Assembly (NCBI GenBank): GCA_034722055.1
Contig: JAYENL010000021.1
Span: forward strand, 1-15,279
Source: Armatimonadota bacterium
Lineage (GTDB): Bacteria; Armatimonadota; Zipacnadia; Zipacnadales; UBA5352
DNA: 15,279 nt
Reading direction: 5' to 3'
The translations under genes were made by a program, and so were the position numbers. Shown here piece after piece: positions 3,181 to 11,508 of the stretch (the stretch's first letter is position 1; each line of letters starts with the position of its first letter). The notes below the pieces were generated by a model. The model was not told the origin of the DNA. It searched no databases and saw only the letters and a program-made list of their open reading frames with translations.

Positions 3181-5406
3181 CTACTGACCCAACTGTCCCT
3201 CTGCCCTCTCGATCTGCTCGGCCAGCAGCCGCCGGCCCTCGTAGATGAAGCTCGGCTGGATGTGCGCGCAGTTGTCGTAGGCGAGGATGAAGCTGTCCGC
3301 CTCCCGCAGCGCCTGCTCGCACTCCTCGGCGAGAGCCCCGTTGCCCACCTCGCGAGCCTGACCGGCCAGCCTCTCCAGCAGCACGTGATACTCGTAGTCC
3401 TCGAGGCCGTCGCGCATCATGGAGATGCGGATCGAGGGGCTCACGGTGCCATCAGGGTTCGGGTAGAGCAGGAAGTGATTGCCGGCGGGCGTTCGCTCCG
3501 AGCGGTTGGGCTGCTCCCAGGGGTTGGTCACCCAGCGGTTGACCGTCCAGATCAGGTAGCCGTCGATGCCGAACCGATAGTTCATCCAGAACAGCGCGCG
3601 GTGATCGACGCCACGCGCCACGATCCGCGTGCCCGGCCGCGGATCCCGGTAGCCGTTGTACCACCACACCTGGTTGCCCTTCGCGTGCTGCTCCTCAAGC
3701 ACGTCGAGGTCAAAGGCGCTCATGTTGATGCAGTAGATGTCCAACGGGTGCAGCACCGGTGACGGCACCTCGGCGCCGAAGAGCTGGATCTTCGGATGCG
3801 CCGCCGTGATGCGCTCAAACACGCGGTTCAGCAGCCCCAGGTCCTCGTCCCGGGTGTTCTTGTGCACCACCACCTCGTCGGCGGGATAGACGTAGCTGCC
3901 CTCCAGCCAGCCGTGGCTCTCGAGGTACTCCGCCGCCACCCGGTAGGCCTCCTCAATGCGGTCGAGGTACTCCTCGCTGCCCTTCCCGGCGCCCAGGAAG
4001 GCGTCGCGGTTGAAGAAGTAGGGCACCGGCATGCCGTCGATGTGATGGCCCAGCGCCAGCGAGCGCTTCAGGCTCTCCTCATACTCCGTGGTGTCTCCCA
4101 GCACCACCCTCTGCTGCTCCTCGTCCCAGTCCAGCGGCAGGTGGCCGAGATTCGACGGGCACAGCCGGTAGCGCGCCAGCAGCTCCACCATCTTGGGCCG
4201 GAAGACGTCCACGAAGTGGTTCCAGTCCTGATTCCCGAACCACTCGTTGATCTCGTCCGAGAAGCCCCAGTAGCCGTAGATGGTGGTGCTGGTGCGCAGC
4301 GACTGCTTCACCGGCACGTCGAAGTTCCATACGTGCAGCCGAAGCTCCGCAGGCAGCTCTCCGGCATCAGTCTGGACAGCCACCGGCGCGCTGTAGTCGC
4401 CGGCAGGCGTCCCTGGCGGTACATAGACCTCCAGCCAGATCGGCCAGTTGCCCAGCCCGTCGGCGGCAAAGGGCCTCGGCCCGGGCAGGGCGTCGGGCAG
4501 GCCCGCCGGCGGTCCCTCCCGTGCAGGCACGTGGCGAACCTCGCTCCAGAAGACGTGCTCGGCGGCGATGGTGGCGCCGGCCGGACCGGTGATCTCCCCC
4601 ACCTCCACCGAGACCTCGCCCACGCCCTCCCCCCCGCGGGGAGTGACCACAAGCTGAACCGCCTCGGTCTCATTGCGCGCCGCGGACATGCGCACCACAG
4701 GGTCCGCGTCGCCCGCCAACGCGGTCTCCTCGGTTCGCCTGATCTTCCGCGCTGACCCCTCCATCCACAGCGTGGCGAAGTCCGTCTGCGCCACCGCGTG
4801 CCGCACCGGCGACGGCTGGGGCGGCTGGTAGTCCTCCGCCCGCGTGGCGCGGAGGTTGTCGATCCAGAAGTCGATGACGTCGCCATGCTCGTAGGTGGAC
4901 TCGGAGAGCCAGTAGTGAACGCCTCCGAATGCCCCCACACGCTCAAGGTCGCGGATGCACAGCTTCTCGTGCGCCCACTGCCCGTGGCGAAGGTCGATGA
5001 GCGTCGCGCGGTAGATCGTGTTCTCCTCGTCGTCGAAGGTGGTTACATTCAGGGCGAAGTCCGGGTCCTCACCGTCGGCGCTCTCGAAGTACACGTCAAA
5101 CTCCAGGAAGTCGTACTGCGACAGGTCGAGCGGCGGGTCATAGCTTCCATCCACCGAGGGCCAGCCCATTGGGTAGGACTCGCCCTCCACGAACTCCACG
5201 TCCTGGTGGTCGATCTCCACGTGGATGTGCAGGGCCTTCTCGCCCTCGACGGTGTGCTCGCCATCGAAGCCGAAGCTGATCTCCTTCTGCCCGCCGGTCT
5301 CCCACTGCTCCGGGTCCGGCGCCTCAAAGCCGTCGATGAGCATCTCCTGCCCGACCGCGAGCGTGCATGTCAGCCCAATCGTGACGACCAGCGCAATCGT
5401 CTTCAT
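3181..5406 (-). CDS. Secreted DUF4091/GH123-like glycoside hydrolase with an N-terminal carbohydrate-binding-like beta-sandwich domain, 741 aa
   Basis: Signal peptide MKTIALVVTIGLTCTLAVG with RBS GGAGGGG upstream. CBM-like segment (IDGFE..W..EGEKAL..DLSQYDFLEFDVY..FWIDNLR). GH123-type N-domain (AARNETEAVQLVV, WLEVYVP..TPAGDY, LHVWNF). Acidic pair in YPADE. DUF4091-type C-terminus GYLIW...LLYP...PSIR...RDGLEDYEY. Ends in TAG. Confidence 0.8.
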   Translation of the reverse strand: MKTIALVVTIGLTCTLAVGQEMLIDGFEAPDPEQWETGGQKEISFGFDGEHTVEGEKALHIHVEIDHQDVEFVEGESYPMGWPSVDGSYDPPLDLSQYDFLEFDVYFESADGEDPDFALNVTTFDDEENTIYRATLIDLRHGQWAHEKLCIRDLERVGAFGGVHYWLSESTYEHGDVIDFWIDNLRATRAEDYQPPQPSPVRHAVAQTDFATLWMEGSARKIRRTEETALAGDADPVVRMSAARNETEAVQLVVTPRGGEGVGEVSVEVGEITGPAGATIAAEHVFWSEVRHVPAREGPPAGLPDALPGPRPFAADGLGNWPIWLEVYVPPGTPAGDYSAPVAVQTDAGELPAELRLHVWNFDVPVKQSLRTSTTIYGYWGFSDEINEWFGNQDWNHFVDVFRPKMVELLARYRLCPSNLGHLPLDWDEEQQRVVLGDTTEYEESLKRSLALGHHIDGMPVPYFFNRDAFLGAGKGSEEYLDRIEEAYRVAAEYLESHGWLEGSYVYPADEVVVHKNTRDEDLGLLNRVFERITAAHPKIQLFGAEVPSPVLHPLDIYCINMSAFDLDVLEEQHAKGNQVWWYNGYRDPRPGTRIVARGVDHRALFWMNYRFGIDGYLIWTVNRWVTNPWEQPNRSERTPAGNHFLLYPNPDGTVSPSIRISMMRDGLEDYEYHVLLERLAGQAREVGNGALAEECEQALREADSFILAYDNCAHIQPSFIYEGRRLLAEQIERAEGQLGQ

Positions 5407-5481
5407 CGTCGCACCCCTCCGGCGTCCTCGGACTGCTCGTCTGGGCAATCTGCCGCATTCCGCTCCGACATCGCGCCTCCC

Positions 5482-7221
5482 TCACCGCGCCAGCACGCGC
5501 ATCGTGTTGTTCAGCTCCGTGATCTCGGCAACCTCTCCGCCGGCATCGATGGTCACGGTCATCTCGTCCTCGGGATTCTCCGGCAGGTCGAAGCTGACCT
5601 CGCCCGTCTTCGGCTGGAAGTCCAGCGGGGCGGCGATGGCCGGGACGTCGGCCTCGGCGATGACCCCGCCGCCGGCGAGGAGCGTCGCCCTGCAGGCCGG
5701 CGCATCCCGCGAGCCCACGTTGTGCACGATGACCGTGAGGCGGCCGTCGCCGAGGTCCGCGCCCTCGCTCGCCGACAGCGCCAGGTCCGGCCGGTCCGGC
5801 GTCCAGTCGGACGGCTCCAGCAGCTCCAACTCGATCTGTGTCGATCGCTCAGCGGGCAGCTCGATGGGGACAGTGACTCCGCGCTGCAGCTCGACCTCGC
5901 GCACCAGGTTCGGCGAGCCCCGCGGCTGGACGGTGAGCCGGTAGCTTCCCGGCGCCATATCCCAGATCCGCATGCCCACCTGGCGGGCGTCGCCGAAGTT
6001 CCAGACGGTGGCCGCCAGGCGCTCCTCGGTGCGCTCTCGCACCAGCGCCGCGAAGTCGTAGCCGGCGTCCCAGCTCACCGCGATGGTCGGCCACGGCGCG
6101 CTGCCGCGCCCGTCCAGGGCATTGCCACCGCAGTACATCCACGGCAGCACGTAGCGCGCCCAGGGGTAGACGCGGTCCTTGTGCGGGTCGATCTCAGTGT
6201 AGATGCGCTCGGCGCGGCGGTTGTTGCGCCAGGCGTTCAGGCACGTGGCCTCCAGGTAGCGCTCCTGGCCCGTGATCAGCCAGCCCAGCACGCCCGGCAG
6301 CTCATCGTAGTAGAGGCCGCGCTGGAAGAAGCTGTCGTCTGCGATGAGCTGCATGCGCTCCTCGGCCTTTGCCAGCATCAGCGCATCGTGCTCGCCCGGC
6401 CCCAGCGCGCGCCTCAGATCACCCGCCGCCATGTTCAGCACCTGCGGCCACCGGCTGTACCTCCGCTCCAGGTAGCCCTCCAGCGGCCGCAGGAAGAGCT
6501 CGTCGCCGGTGAGCTGATAGGCCGCGTTCATCATCATGGTCAGCTCCGACAGATAGACCTCGCGCGCCGGCCCAATCTCGTGCGTGTCGAAGTCCACCCA
6601 TGCCGGGATCACCCCCGCGGGCTTGTCCTCCGTCTCGGTCATCGCATCCTCGACCCAGGCCCGCGCCCACTCCGTCAGATGCCGACTGGCCGTCGGGTGG
6701 CGGCAGTACCAGGCCAGGTACATCGAGGCGGTCATGGCGGTGGCGTTCAGGCCCACGTCATGGCCGAAGTGCCCCTCGGTCTTCATCCTCTCGGCAGTGA
6801 AGAAGTTGCTCCTGAAGTGCCGGTGATCGGGGCCGGTGATGCCCGTCCAGTAGTCGATATTCGACGCCGTCTGCATCAGCCGCTCCAGGTGCAGCGGATC
6901 GCCGTAGCGCACCAGCGCCATGGTGGGCTCCAGGTAGCTGGCCTCCTCGGCGGAGTGCACGATGTCCGTGAAGGGCTCGCTCCATCCGTTGAGCATCCGC
7001 CCCGAGGCCCAGTGTGCCGCCAGGTACTTCTCCATGGCCGCCGCCAGCTTCTCGTCGCCGCTCAGCAGCCACAGGAAGGAGAACTCGTTGAACAGCTTCG
7101 TGTCATCGTTCCACATGTTCGCCCGGCCGACCATGTAGCCGGTCTCATCCTGCCGCTCGTCGATCCACCAGTGGATGACATCCCGCGCGGCCAGCGCCGC
7201 CTCCCGAGCGTACTTCGCCAC
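5482..7221 (-). CDS. C-terminal segment of the interrupted gene: aromatic/acidic helical domain (hydrolase/lyase-like) + C-terminal CARDB domain
   Basis: HWWIDERQDETG..WNDDT region. The C-terminus PDLALS...LTVIVHNVGSRDAPA...IDAGGEVAEITELNNT matches the CARDB pattern. Ends in TGA. Confidence 0.7.
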   Translation of the reverse strand: MAKYAREAALAARDVIHWWIDERQDETGYMVGRANMWNDDTKLFNEFSFLWLLSGDEKLAAAMEKYLAAHWASGRMLNGWSEPFTDIVHSAEEASYLEPTMALVRYGDPLHLERLMQTASNIDYWTGITGPDHRHFRSNFFTAERMKTEGHFGHDVGLNATAMTASMYLAWYCRHPTASRHLTEWARAWVEDAMTETEDKPAGVIPAWVDFDTHEIGPAREVYLSELTMMMNAAYQLTGDELFLRPLEGYLERRYSRWPQVLNMAAGDLRRALGPGEHDALMLAKAEERMQLIADDSFFQRGLYYDELPGVLGWLITGQERYLEATCLNAWRNNRRAERIYTEIDPHKDRVYPWARYVLPWMYCGGNALDGRGSAPWPTIAVSWDAGYDFAALVRERTEERLAATVWNFGDARQVGMRIWDMAPGSYRLTVQPRGSPNLVREVELQRGVTVPIELPAERSTQIELELLEPSDWTPDRPDLALSASEGADLGDGRLTVIVHNVGSRDAPACRATLLAGGGVIAEADVPAIAAPLDFQPKTGEVSFDLPENPEDEMTVTIDAGGEVAEITELNNTMRVLAR

Positions 7222-7284
7222 CGCCGGGAAGTCCTCGGGGCCCTCAGGCTCGCGGTCCCACTCCGGCCACGGCCGGAACTTCGC

Positions 7285-8082
7285 CTAGCGAGCTATGTTC
7301 AGCGCCAGCTCGTTGTCTGGATCGTAGTAGAGGGCCCGGAAGACCCCGCGGGTCAGCGGGCTGTCGAGCTCGATCCCGCGCAGGTAGAACTTGAAGTTCA
7401 GGCCCATGCGCGAGGTGAACTCCTCGTTCATCAGCCGGTTGTAGTCACGCCCAAAGGCCGCTCCCTCCTCGTCGGCCGGGACTATCTCCGCGCGCAGCTC
7501 CGGCACGCCGTCGATCTTCAGCGAATCGGAGGAGACAAGCTGCACCAGCGGCCGGCTGCCCTCGGGGTAGATCATCCCTGGTCCGGCGATGGTGACGTCC
7601 AGCTCCCGCGTTCCCTCGCCACGCCAGATGACATCGAAGTCGGCGCTGGCGTAGAACGCGTCCGGCTCGTAGGGATGAGGGACAGTCACCCGCAGCGTCT
7701 GCGCCTTCGCCCCGGGCTCCACGGACATCCGCAGGCGCAGCGCGCGGACCGCGCCATCCTCAGCCACGGTCTCGCCGGCGAGGTACAGCCGCCGGGTGGG
7801 CGGCAGCACCTCGTCGAGAGGCCCCGGCGGCCCCGGCAGCAGCAGCCGGCGATCCGCCGGGTCCAGCGCCCGCAGCAGCGGATCCGCCTGCGCGGTGATG
7901 TGTGCGACGACTTCCGGGTAGTCCTCTTGCTCGGCCTTCGGCTCCTCGGGCGCCTCGCGCGGAGACGCCAGGTCGCGCGGCGTTCCCTCAGCGACCAGCT
8001 CCCAGGCGGTCATCGCCCGGTCCGGCGGCGTCGTGCTGGCGGCGTAGAGCATGACCTCGCCCACCTGGCTGCCGCCCGGCAC
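7285..8082 (-). CDS. Middle segment of the interrupted gene (no independent function assigned)
   Basis: Begins on the codon immediately after the first TAG, in the same frame, with no RBS in front of it. Coding-like codon bias. Ends at the second TAG. Confidence 0.55.
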   Translation of the reverse strand: MPGGSQVGEVMLYAASTTPPDRAMTAWELVAEGTPRDLASPREAPEEPKAEQEDYPEVVAHITAQADPLLRALDPADRRLLLPGPPGPLDEVLPPTRRLYLAGETVAEDGAVRALRLRMSVEPGAKAQTLRVTVPHPYEPDAFYASADFDVIWRGEGTRELDVTIAGPGMIYPEGSRPLVQLVSSDSLKIDGVPELRAEIVPADEEGAAFGRDYNRLMNEEFTSRMGLNFKFYLRGIELDSPLTRGVFRALYYDPDNELALNIAR

Positions 8083-9312
8083 CTAGAGCAGGACGTCGCC
8101 CGTCGCCGGGAGCCGAGCGCGCCCAGCTCCCGCGGCGGTGGTGCGGAGATCACGCTCCAGTCCCTCCACGCGAAAGCTAGCGCCTTCGGGCGGCCGTCCG
8201 ACCACCACGAGGTAGTTGGCCTCGCTGCCCTCCGGAAGCCGGAAGGTGATGTCGCGGTCCATGGTCAGGCCGCCCTGAGCGAAGCTCGCCGCCGGCTGCC
8301 AGCGGCCGTCGGCGAGCAGCGCAGACTCGATGAAGCGCACATCGATTCCCACTGGCTGGATACGCTCGAAGCGGACCCGCGCCACGCCGCCCTCTGCCCG
8401 CACGGTGAGCCGGTCGGGGTCCTCCTCGATGAGCAGGCGACGGCGACGGTCCGCGAGCTGCTCGGCGGTGTACTCGACGGGCATCGCCTGGTGGAGGTCC
8501 AGGTAGCGGCCCTCCATCAGCGCCACGACCTCGTCATCGGTTACCGCCCGATCCAGCATGATCAGCTCGTCGTAGACGGCATCGGCCGAGGTGGTATACT
8601 GAGGCCGAGCGGTGGGTCCGCCGCAGCCGACACCGATCCTGAAGGGCGTCGCCGGCGGATACGCATCCTCGCCCCATGTCGAGTACTTCATCTTCCCGTT
8701 GTCGTAGAAGCGCATCCCCTGCCCGGCGTCCCAGGTCATGACGATGTGGTGCCACTCGCCGGCCTTCCAGGTCCGTATACCCTCCCCGTAGCTGAGGCCG
8801 TGCTGGCCGCCGTCGCGATCCACCACCCAGAAGTAGAAGGCGCCGCCCTTGATGTTCGCGCGGATGAACTGGCGGTAGTAGGTGTCTTCCACCGCCGAGA
8901 CGTTCAGCAGGTATGGCCCTGTGGAGTTGCTGCCGGAGCGGATCGTGGGGTCGTCGGCGTCATACAGCGGCTGGAGCCAGTAGGCCACGGTTCCCCGCTC
9001 GCCGTAGAGGTTCCCGGTGGCGTCATAGTTGAGCGAGGTGGCGCGGCCCTTGACCTTGCCCAGCTCCGCCTCCTTGCTCCTCTGCGTCAGCGCGGCCCGG
9101 CCGATCCTGCCCTCCACGAACTGGACGTTCACCAGGCTGATCGGCTCGGGATCGCCCCGGGCGTAGTGCGCCGCGACCTCGCCCTCGAAGGGCGCGTAGA
9201 AGGTCACGCCCCGCGCCTCCAGTGCGGCGGGGTCGATCTGCGCGCCCGCACAGGCCACGCAGCCCGCAATGGCCGCGGCCATCACAACGCTTCGGCTCAT
9301 TCCCGCACGCAT
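8083..9312 (-). CDS. N-terminal segment of the interrupted gene: signal peptide + LamG/concanavalin-A-like jelly-roll domain
   Basis: ATG 9312 with GGAG upstream. Signal peptide ..VVMAAAIAGCVACAGA. LamG motifs GTVAYW, GEWHHIVMTWD..GMRFYDNGK and YDELIMLDRAVTDDEV. Ends at an in-frame TAG. Confidence 0.7.
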   Translation of the reverse strand: MRAGMSRSVVMAAAIAGCVACAGAQIDPAALEARGVTFYAPFEGEVAAHYARGDPEPISLVNVQFVEGRIGRAALTQRSKEAELGKVKGRATSLNYDATGNLYGERGTVAYWLQPLYDADDPTIRSGSNSTGPYLLNVSAVEDTYYRQFIRANIKGGAFYFWVVDRDGGQHGLSYGEGIRTWKAGEWHHIVMTWDAGQGMRFYDNGKMKYSTWGEDAYPPATPFRIGVGCGGPTARPQYTTSADAVYDELIMLDRAVTDDEVVALMEGRYLDLHQAMPVEYTAEQLADRRRRLLIEEDPDRLTVRAEGGVARVRFERIQPVGIDVRFIESALLADGRWQPAASFAQGGLTMDRDITFRLPEGSEANYLVVVGRPPEGASFRVEGLERDLRTTAAGAGRARLPATGDVLL

Positions 9313-9342
9313 GATCTCACTCCCCATGGCACCGAGGCGTCT

Positions 9343-11508
9343 TCACCCCTCGGGGATCAGGATCGCCGCCTCGCCCAGCCGCAGGCGGGCCGCAGATACG
9401 GGCTCGCCGAGCGTCCCGTCCGCCTGCAGCGGGCGGTGCGGGTCCCCAAGCGGGTAGTCGATCGCGGTGTCACCGCCCCAGCCCAGCGCAGGCATGGCCG
9501 GTCGCACCAGCACCAGTGCGTTCGAGAAGCGCCGCCGGAGGATGATCTCCTGCGCGTGCGCGCCCTCCACCAGCCGCAGGTCGTCGAACCAGGCGGTGCC
9601 CGTCGAGGCGTAGACGCGGAAGGTCACCCGGCCGTCGGCGTCCTGACCCGTTCGGAAGACCTGCTGCACGCGCGTCCAGTCATGCGTGCCGTGCATCACG
9701 ATGCCGATGCCCGCGCCATGGGCCTCGTCGAACTCGTAGACGTAGAGCTGCGCCCCCTGCCCGCCCTCAATCGCCTCGGTCTTCATCCACCCGCTCAGCG
9801 TGTAAGCGGTATGGGGCTTCAGCGACACGTAGCCCTTGTTAATGTTGTTGATCGTCACGTCATCGCTGTCGATCCGCACCGAGCGCGAGCCTGAATGGAC
9901 GACCTCCTCGTCGAAGGCCAGCGGCTGAGCGGTCTGCCAGCCGTCGGGCAGCCCGTCACCGTCCCGGTCGCGCTCGAAGTCGCCATTCGGCAGCAGGTTC
10001 TCGCCCTCCACCTCCTCGCCCACATCGGCCACCACGCTCTCGTAGGGCCCCAGCGGCTCGCCTACGTCGTACTCGATGGCCGGGAAGTACCAGCTTGTGG
10101 CCTCCCCATAGGGGTGCCGGCCGTAGCCGTAGTAGGTCCGGTCGCCGGCGCACAGGTAGTAGGCCGCCAGCCCGAAGATGGCGTCGCGCTCCAGCTCGAT
10201 CGGCACCTTATGCCCGAACTCCGACCGGCCCTCAACGTAGATGGGGTTGAACTGCAGAAGCTGGATCTTGCCGCGCGCGTCCACCTCCACGGCTCGACGC
10301 AGACGGGCCTCCAGCGCGCTCGCCGGGTGCGTGATGTTCAGCCAGCCCTCGCTCTCCGCGCCGTCGATCACGAAGGGCTCCGCGCTCCAGCCGTTGGCCA
10401 CCAGGACGCTGTCGGGAAGAGCGATCTTCACCCGCGCAAGCGCCATCTGCATGTCCCGCAGCCACGCCTCCTCCTCGTCGGGGCCGCGGGGGTATTCCAG
10501 GATCGGCCCGGACCGTCCCGGGCCTGGCACGTCGGCCGTAATGGTGTCCACGAAGAAGCCATCGTAGCCGCCCTCCAGCCTCGCCGGCATGTACCGCTCC
10601 GCCAGGTAGCGCTGGTAACCAGGGTGGCCGATGTTCATGACGAAGTCGTCCCGGGGCGGCCCCCAATAGTAGATGGGCACCCGCGCCTGCGACATCCGGC
10701 GGGCGTTGGCCCCGGGGTTGGCGAGGTCCGCCGCCTCCGCCTCATCCACAACGCCGTCACCGTTGCGGTCATTGGCCGGGTCCCAGCCCGGCACGGTGCG
10801 GGTCTCGCGCGGGTTCTCCGCCCGCTCGGCGCCCACGTGCAGCGTTATCTCGGTGTCCTCGCGGAAGTGGCAGAACATCTCCTCCGGCACGCCCTCCTCG
10901 CTGAGGCCCTCCGCCACGCACCACGACGCCAGGTCGTCGTGCTTCTCGGATGGAATCACCATGGTGGCCATGAGGGAGTAGCGCAGTCCGATGTACTGCG
11001 GACGGATCTCGTTCGGCGTGGGGCGGAAGCTTACGTCGTAGCGCTCGGCCAGCATCTCTGCATCGTCGGAGCCGAAGTTCACGAAGGTCCGTATGTGCTC
11101 CCGCAGCGCAGGCAGAGGCTCATGGTCCACCGTGAAGCGAGCCATGCCACTCCATTCACCCGGCTCCGGGCCCTCGCCCCACAGCCTGACGCGCCAGTAG
11201 TAGGTCTGCCCGTCGCGCAGCGCCTGTCCGGCGTACTCGGCGATGGGCAGCGGACTTTCCACGCGCCCGGAGTCCCACACCAGCTCGCCTTCGGCCACCA
11301 GGTCCGCCTCCGAGGCCGCCACCTGAACCTGCCAGGCCCGCTGTGCGTCGGTCTCCCAGAGCATCTCCGGATGGCTGTCGCGGACCGCGGGGTTGTCGCG
11401 TCGCCACTCGCACCGCAGCCCCGTTGGACTCGGCGCGGCGAGGGCCGTGCTGCTCACGGTAGCAAGGGACACCGCCAGGAGCATCAACTCAGCACCAGGC
11501 GCCGACAT
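9343..11508 (-). CDS. Secreted multidomain putative glycoside hydrolase: Fn3-like (alpha-L-rhamnosidase N-terminal type) + GHL15-like core + CBM4/9-like domain, 721 aa
   Basis: ATG 11508 with GGAGAGGTG upstream and a signal peptide ending STALA. PTGLRCE...QRAWQVQVA..VWDSGRVES...YYWRVRLW..WS is the Fn3-like module seen at the N-terminus of GH78 rhamnosidases. Core contains YDGFFVDT. ENLLPNGDFE..DGLPDGW...YTLSGWMKT...DWTRV...AWFDDLRL is a CBM4/9-like pattern. Confidence 0.75.
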   Translation of the reverse strand: MSAPGAELMLLAVSLATVSSTALAAPSPTGLRCEWRRDNPAVRDSHPEMLWETDAQRAWQVQVAASEADLVAEGELVWDSGRVESPLPIAEYAGQALRDGQTYYWRVRLWGEGPEPGEWSGMARFTVDHEPLPALREHIRTFVNFGSDDAEMLAERYDVSFRPTPNEIRPQYIGLRYSLMATMVIPSEKHDDLASWCVAEGLSEEGVPEEMFCHFREDTEITLHVGAERAENPRETRTVPGWDPANDRNGDGVVDEAEAADLANPGANARRMSQARVPIYYWGPPRDDFVMNIGHPGYQRYLAERYMPARLEGGYDGFFVDTITADVPGPGRSGPILEYPRGPDEEEAWLRDMQMALARVKIALPDSVLVANGWSAEPFVIDGAESEGWLNITHPASALEARLRRAVEVDARGKIQLLQFNPIYVEGRSEFGHKVPIELERDAIFGLAAYYLCAGDRTYYGYGRHPYGEATSWYFPAIEYDVGEPLGPYESVVADVGEEVEGENLLPNGDFERDRDGDGLPDGWQTAQPLAFDEEVVHSGSRSVRIDSDDVTINNINKGYVSLKPHTAYTLSGWMKTEAIEGGQGAQLYVYEFDEAHGAGIGIVMHGTHDWTRVQQVFRTGQDADGRVTFRVYASTGTAWFDDLRLVEGAHAQEIILRRRFSNALVLVRPAMPALGWGGDTAIDYPLGDPHRPLQADGTLGEPVSAARLRLGEAAILIPEG

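Follow-up and report, generated by a model that had tools for sequence, protein, structure and literature searches.

Does a reading frame broken by two amber (TAG) codons, and by nothing else, belong to a gene whose stops are read through or to a gene that has recently been lost? The question is raised by a stretch of 15,279 nucleotides (nt) (the window) from contig JAYENL010000021.1 of an Armatimonadota bacterium (GCA_034722055.1), in which a predicted secreted LamG/(alpha/alpha)6-barrel/CARDB protein is encoded at positions 5482..9312 of the minus strand. Read from 9312 to 5482, the gene is a single frame that runs for 1276 codons before its terminal TGA and is interrupted solely by TAG at codon 410 (..GDVLL*VPGGSQ.., 8083..8085) and codon 676 (..LNIAR*AKFRPWP.., 7285..7287). 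A first-pass annotation had seen in this pair possible read-through or recoding, with pseudogenization as a live option. The comparisons reported here point to the latter: with a probability of about 0.9, the gene would be a recently inactivated pseudogene, disabled by two nonsense mutations and not recoded.

The three open reading frames (ORFs) called separately in this region are one gene, as had been proposed. Eleven relatives keep the orthologue as a single open frame, and in one further relative the gene lies over two contigs. Translation confirmed that TAG is present only at codons 410 and 676 and that no TAA or TGA occurs within the frame. The three pieces are also alike in codon log-odds (0.28, 0.29, and 0.36) and in GC content at third codon positions (0.89, 0.89, and 0.93), in agreement with the uniform codon bias described earlier across the junctions. 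The expected domain layout was recovered as well. Pfam finds a LamG/concanavalin A-like domain (PF13385; amino acids [aa] 100-262, 8527..9015, E 1e-11) and a CARDB domain (PF07705; aa 1189-1271, 5500..5748, E 1.6e-7), and a likely signal peptide (aa 1-24, 9241..9312) was judged by eye, similar N-termini being present in orthologues. An (alpha/alpha)6 barrel, predicted at about aa 697-1064 (6121..7224) from a model and a structural match and likely to be the catalytic domain, is located entirely downstream of both stops.

A DNA search of 41 genomes yielded 13 orthologous loci, some of them partial, and 68 matches were listed when 67 genomes of the order were searched at the protein level. The homologue search covered protein lengths of 701 to 2233 aa and produced 33 hits, 22 of which, overlapping with the orthologous loci, were aligned. 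Named homologues belonged to Armatimonadota, and full-length open orthologues measured 1248 to 1283 aa, with identities of 41 to 73%. In none of the 13 loci was the matched frame interrupted by a stop, and none of the relatives examined was split at codon 410 or 676, as would have been found if homologues were naturally divided at these points. In the same-genus genome (83% complete), only paralogues, and no orthologue, were matched.

The residues at the two positions differed in constraint. Codon 676 was TGG in all 12 orthologous loci covering it, and all 22 aligned homologues, with identities as low as 41%, had Trp in this column. The codon 410 column was variable (R, H, M, L, A, S, or Q), with Gln in 1 of 20 homologues. 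Both stops lie one G:C-to-A:T transition away from a sense codon, TGG in the case of 676 and CAG in that of 410. Since the two codons stand for different residues, no single reassignment fits both, and the sense codons carried by the relatives speak against recoding. In these respects, the gene resembles the nonsense pseudogenes (CAG>TAG, TGG>TAG) treated in PMC7918605, with one-base changes, intact orthologues, and a stop limited to one species.

A small inverted repeat (7262..7277, loop of 2 nt) after the second TAG had been put forward as a possible hairpin. It is indeed present, and it is the sole perfect 7-bp stem with a loop of 2 to 8 nt in the gene, but its region folded no better than shuffled sequences (z of +0.65 and -0.46, not significant). 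The codon 410 region likewise showed no significant structure (z of -0.11). The identical stretch is found in orthologue L009, which has TGG at codon 676, so the repeat would be a by-product of the coding sequence that predates the stop. The combination of a conserved stop and a downstream signal, as in programmed read-through, was not found: the stop was conserved in 0 of the 13 loci, and the repeat was unchanged in this TGG-bearing orthologue.

One orthologue stood apart. That of G005 (L011, C600; also C605) is spread over contigs, with apparent frame changes and a duplicated C-terminal stretch, and may represent a broken gene or an assembly error.

Internal stops and the possibility of leaky read-through

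Three genome screens underlie the census of internal stops in the host genome (G000; 6.14 Mb, 68% GC, 92.7% complete). Codon 410 was missed by the coding-score screen, so the nine internal stops identified are a lower bound. Apart from codons 410 and 676, five are TAG and two are TGA. Two of the TAGs correspond to CAG in the same-genus genome (4Fe-4S dicluster gene, L081, C159:14720; unknown secreted gene, L082, C243:37150), two correspond to TGG in that genome (GH43-like, L083, C65:908; DUF389, L088, C277:12997), and one corresponds to TGG in a more distant relative (TadE-like, L190, C316:46644). The TGA stops are each spanned by a Pfam domain (P-type ATPase, L084, C289:18270; UroD-like, L080, C67:3547). 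Most of the 67 coding-score candidates were neighboring genes sharing a frame, and those in C273, C262, and C38 were dropped on reading.

The alignments drew on 2.04 Mb of sequence from 11 relatives, in which 1377 proteins were predicted; 1052 of these matched at a level of at least 45%. Over 395,918 aligned codon positions, 24 stops fell inside alignments and 3 were truly internal (codons 410 and 676 and the stop in C316); the remaining 21 were discarded, 16 as lying at alignment ends and 5 as lying in antisense shadow frames. The reverse test, over 447,102 positions of the relatives, rendered 6 stops, all of them in shadow frames or C-terminal tails.

All seven internal TAGs, including those at 410 and 676, map to CAG (three) or TGG (four), and their share (7 of 9) agrees with the 0.68 expected from transitions and codon usage (P = 0.42). 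Two random one-step stops in this gene would both be TAG with a probability of 0.40 to 0.48, given its codons, and two transition stops with a probability of 0.47, given the codon use of the genome. In genomes of about 68% GC whose codon use is rich in CAG and TGG, two random stops would both be amber nearly half the time, which makes the locus a useful control. The argument that a pair of amber lesions is remarkable does not hold in the host genome, in which one-step stops come chiefly from CAG and TGG and internal TAGs show no excess over mutational opportunity. Judged from these codons, the set reads as a pattern of recent transitions and not as the product of one decoding rule.

Two candidate causes of the mutations were rejected. 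Codon 410 lies in CCAGG, but a methylcytosine hotspot was set aside, as CCWGG shows no depletion and the search for a C5-methyltransferase was negative; loss of uracil repair was set aside, as two uracil-DNA glycosylase genes are open. Genome-wide, CTAG is strongly depleted (observed/expected, 0.08), though no such methyltransferase was found.

Leaky amber read-through, in which a near-cognate tRNA (likely tRNA-Gln) or an unassembled suppressor would yield some full-length enzyme and amber alleles would be tolerated, is unlikely. Standard ARAGORN calls included no tRNA with a CUA anticodon in the 92.7%-complete genome, and a scan of anticodon loops, run with no dedicated pylT model, gave none either. 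Relaxed ARAGORN settings gave 5 CUA calls among 3126, which we regard as noise: 4 overlap coding segments, and the fifth is not conserved, does not fold stably, and is not matched by the Rfam tRNA family. Read-through would account for a gene free of other decay, and it could draw on the TAG share and on the three internal TAGs at Gln codons, but that share equals mutational opportunity, codon 676 requires an invariant Trp, and the effects of two leaky stops multiply. Coding-like in-frame continuation is slightly commoner after TAG than after TGA (28 of 1089 versus 37 of 2071; 3.6% versus 2.7% in a second estimate), yet most such continuations are neighboring genes that share the frame by chance. 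Conserved bacterial in-frame stops with TAG/CAG switching are reported in PMC7918605, where brief read-through is suggested, but the same source assumes that most such stops lack functional recoding. If leaky read-through were demonstrated, the locus would represent an uncommon natural stage on the way to stop-codon reassignment.

There is a slim chance that the lineage reads UAG ambiguously with no pyl or suppressor gene, amber alleles of Gln and Trp codons drifting in six or more genes, including one that nearly all relatives keep. Were this so, we would be looking at a natural population at the first step of amber reassignment.

The tRNA survey also revealed a gene shaped like tRNA-Sec (L149:1501-1595, minus strand, equivalent to G000:C243:63147-63241; 59.4 bits to Rfam RF01852) whose anticodon is GCA (Cys) and which carries U73. 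The host genome has a separate canonical tRNA-Cys, and selA gave no match in it. The gene was matched in 12 of 17 relatives, with the GCA anticodon in all 5 checked, and it resembles the selC* tRNA-Cys type. Such tRNAs are listed for other phyla in PMC7609411, and Armatimonadetes are not mentioned in the main texts of PMC7609411 and PMC5389517.

Strain variation and the probable history of the two stops

Strain variation was studied in four brine metagenome runs (X1 to X4) of one study, two of which may be the source of the window DNA. The comparison was limited to positions 5400 to 9400 and to the contigs and differences listed; contigs drop rare variants. No RNA dataset was listed as containing the gene, which has no bearing on its expression. 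TAG at codon 676 was present in contigs of all four runs (depths of 52, 18.3, 31.8, and 6.2), and TAG at codon 410 in contigs of two. At the latter position, X1 (depth, 52) and X2 (depth, 18.3) have CAG and X3 (depth, 57.4) has TAG, while X4 holds both alleles, with 2.1 of a depth of 4.9 carrying the C at 8085. A divergent X1 contig with a depth of 4 shows TGG at codon 676. X3 further differs at codon 416 (8065..8067), where it encodes Glu in place of Gln, and at codons 866 and 855 (6715..6750), where CTG/CTC differences are synonymous. Its alleles at 416, 855, and 866 agree with those of most or of the nearest orthologues.

The idea that sequencing or assembly errors hide an intact gene in living cells is very improbable. 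The two runs most like the window DNA show CAG at codon 410, where TAG may be a mosaic call, and the depth of X3 dips over codon 676, but TAG676 is found in the contigs of all four runs, all of one study, and TAG410 is found in an X3 contig with a depth of 57.4. Both stops are genuine and are not errors of this assembly.

A functional gene fission, in which the pieces would be translated separately and the barrel-CARDB piece would work alone, has a similarly poor chance. GTG directly follows TAG410, and a GTG at 7221, preceded by GAGG, opens an ORF of 579 aa containing nearly all of the barrel plus CARDB; however, this piece lacks a signal peptide, codon 410 is polymorphic, and no break at either point was seen in the relatives, homologues having been searched between 701 and 2233 aa.

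Under the pseudogene reading, two haplotypes that share TAG676 can be ordered: one with CAG410 and Q416 (A) and one with TAG410 and E416 (B). Since every sampled strain carries TAG676, this stop is inferred to have come first, with TAG410 arising later on B, a history that requires four mutations and zero reversions. The invariant TGG at codon 676 would have mutated to TAG before the change at codon 410, and release factor 1 (RF1) would end translation there, upstream of the predicted catalytic barrel. Selection would then have been lost, and CAG410 would have become TAG in one strain lineage. The product would be a fragment of 675 aa in CAG strains or 409 aa in TAG strains, which would keep the signal peptide and the LamG domain and lack the enzyme domain. 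The sense codons of relatives and CAG410 in sister strains favor pseudogenization. As in the known nonsense pseudogenes, one stop (410) is still polymorphic; unlike them, the gene shows as yet no frameshift or other measurable decay.

Several observations weigh against this account. The combination in the window itself, TAG410 with Q416, is that of neither main contig haplotype (sites 8067, 8085, 6715, and 6748) and would point to a mosaic assembly, a recombinant, or a third strain; a reversion from TAG to CAG at codon 410 is conceivable. Over codon 676, the X3 contig has a depth of 31.8, compared to 52 to 57 in the adjoining sequence, and may conceal a further allele. That one of just four strain differences known should be a second stop takes some luck, as the gene offers 97 transition routes to a stop in its approximately 2,650 G/C sites. 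Of the invariant columns, 12 of 410 carry private changes, a share inside the orthologue range of 0.8 to 8.9%, the ratio of nonsynonymous to synonymous change (pN/pS) is comparable to that of intact pairs, and no frameshift or other decay was seen, so the pseudogene must be very young. One of the other ambers interrupts a gene for which 16 of 17 relatives have a match. Frameshift candidates in sampled genes numbered 0 in the host versus 11, unverified, in relatives, and the damage in the host genome looks substitution-only. Finally, the host genome is incomplete (92.7%), and tRNAs are often unassembled. It should be added that the nearest orthologue, at 73% identity, is too far to show recent decay, that in X3 the two stops lie on separate contigs, and that the contigs give no phase.

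TAG as a stop signal in the host genome

TAG terminates 1089 of 3375 coding-like frames in the host genome. Among 643 host genes with an end matching the end of a relative's gene, 206 terminate in TAG, and 90 of these TAG ends face TGA or TAA in the relative. In the window, ftsZ and the downstream GH123/DUF4091-type gene both terminate with TAG. Both RF1 and RF2 exceed the NCBIfam cutoffs, RF1 with its PAT and GGQ motifs. The earlier view that full reassignment of TAG is wrong was therefore sound: RF1 is intact and TAG is a common true stop, including at the end of ftsZ.

TAG may encode pyrrolysine (pylTSBCD), be read by amber suppressor tRNAs, or be reassigned; the features of pyrrolysine systems, suppressors, and release factor motifs used here are those of established knowledge. 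In the host genome, the C-terminal part of PylS scored 29 bits against a cutoff of 178, and the N-terminal part of PylS and PylB gave no match (the Methanosarcina control was detected; pylC and pylD were not searched). In the window, neither PYLIS nor any other Rfam family was matched. The check suggested for pyl genes or a CUA tRNA thus found no PylS, PylB, or CUA tRNA in the 92.7%-complete host genome. Like known pyrrolysine recoding and amber suppression, the locus has in-frame UAG in an otherwise intact frame, but here one site is an invariant Trp and the other a variable, surface-like position, in place of a methyltransferase active site. Crassvirales-type phages, in which TAG is reported to be reassigned to Gln, share TAG/CAG exchange at one site; unlike in those phages, TAG is here a common true stop, RF1 is intact, and internal TAGs are rare, with four of the seven at Trp. 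Among the matches listed in a single literature search on amber reassignment, there was no mention of "Armatimonad-". Reassignment of TAG in this host, or its use for pyrrolysine, has a negligible probability, favored solely by both breaks being amber and opposed by the TAG gene ends, the intact RF1, the Trp and Gln correspondence of the two sites, and the pyl and tRNA searches.

The predicted enzyme domain and its family

The 600 aa past codon 676 were modeled as a helical domain plus two beta domains (predicted local distance difference test [pLDDT], 91). The helical domain matched the GH76 structure 6shd_A (Z, 16.3; root mean square deviation, 4.1; 285 residues aligned; about 10% identity), followed by GH47 (Z, 15.0) and GH88 (Z, 14.4), and the top rank in Foldseek was GH127. 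Invariant barrel residues are D736, H786, E789, H832, and D1046; the barrel also has a conserved Trp, and the adjacent D736 and D737 are conserved in 34 of 34 and 31 of 34 sequences. Pfam gave no hit for the barrel, a PDB sequence search gave nothing significant for it (4v1r, E 0.57), and the ESM Atlas returned unnamed clusters only, at 0.90. The predicted fold, the conserved acidic and aromatic residues, and the adjacent Asp pair recall the GH76 alpha-1,6-mannanases (6shd, 6zbx). The differences are the identity of about 10%, the lack of a Pfam or PDB sequence match, and GH47 lying within about 1.3 Z units. GH47, GH88, GH127, and AGE-type epimerases also have (alpha/alpha)6 or (alpha/alpha)7 barrels like the predicted domain. 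On the basis of the model, the protein in its ancestral, unbroken form was probably a glycoside hydrolase or a related sugar-acting enzyme, and secreted.

The gene is flanked by intact secreted carbohydrate-type genes at 3181..5448 (minus strand, GH123-like) and 9343..11505 (minus strand, Rha78A-N/GHL15/CBM4_9). Synteny with relative G007 extends to cdsA, ald, and the GH123-like neighbor. The host genome contains four open paralogues of the barrel-CARDB half (C57, C69, C221, and C280; about 30% identity); a TGA first counted as an internal stop in that of C280 was dropped, being the terminal stop. The paralogue family, whose barrel has no Pfam model, is expanded across this Armatimonadota family.

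As most likely read, the broken gene itself matters little, being a young pseudogene in which the second stop still varies between strains. The intact LamG/barrel/CARDB family, with several paralogues per Armatimonadota genome, is an uncharacterized candidate glycoside hydrolase family.

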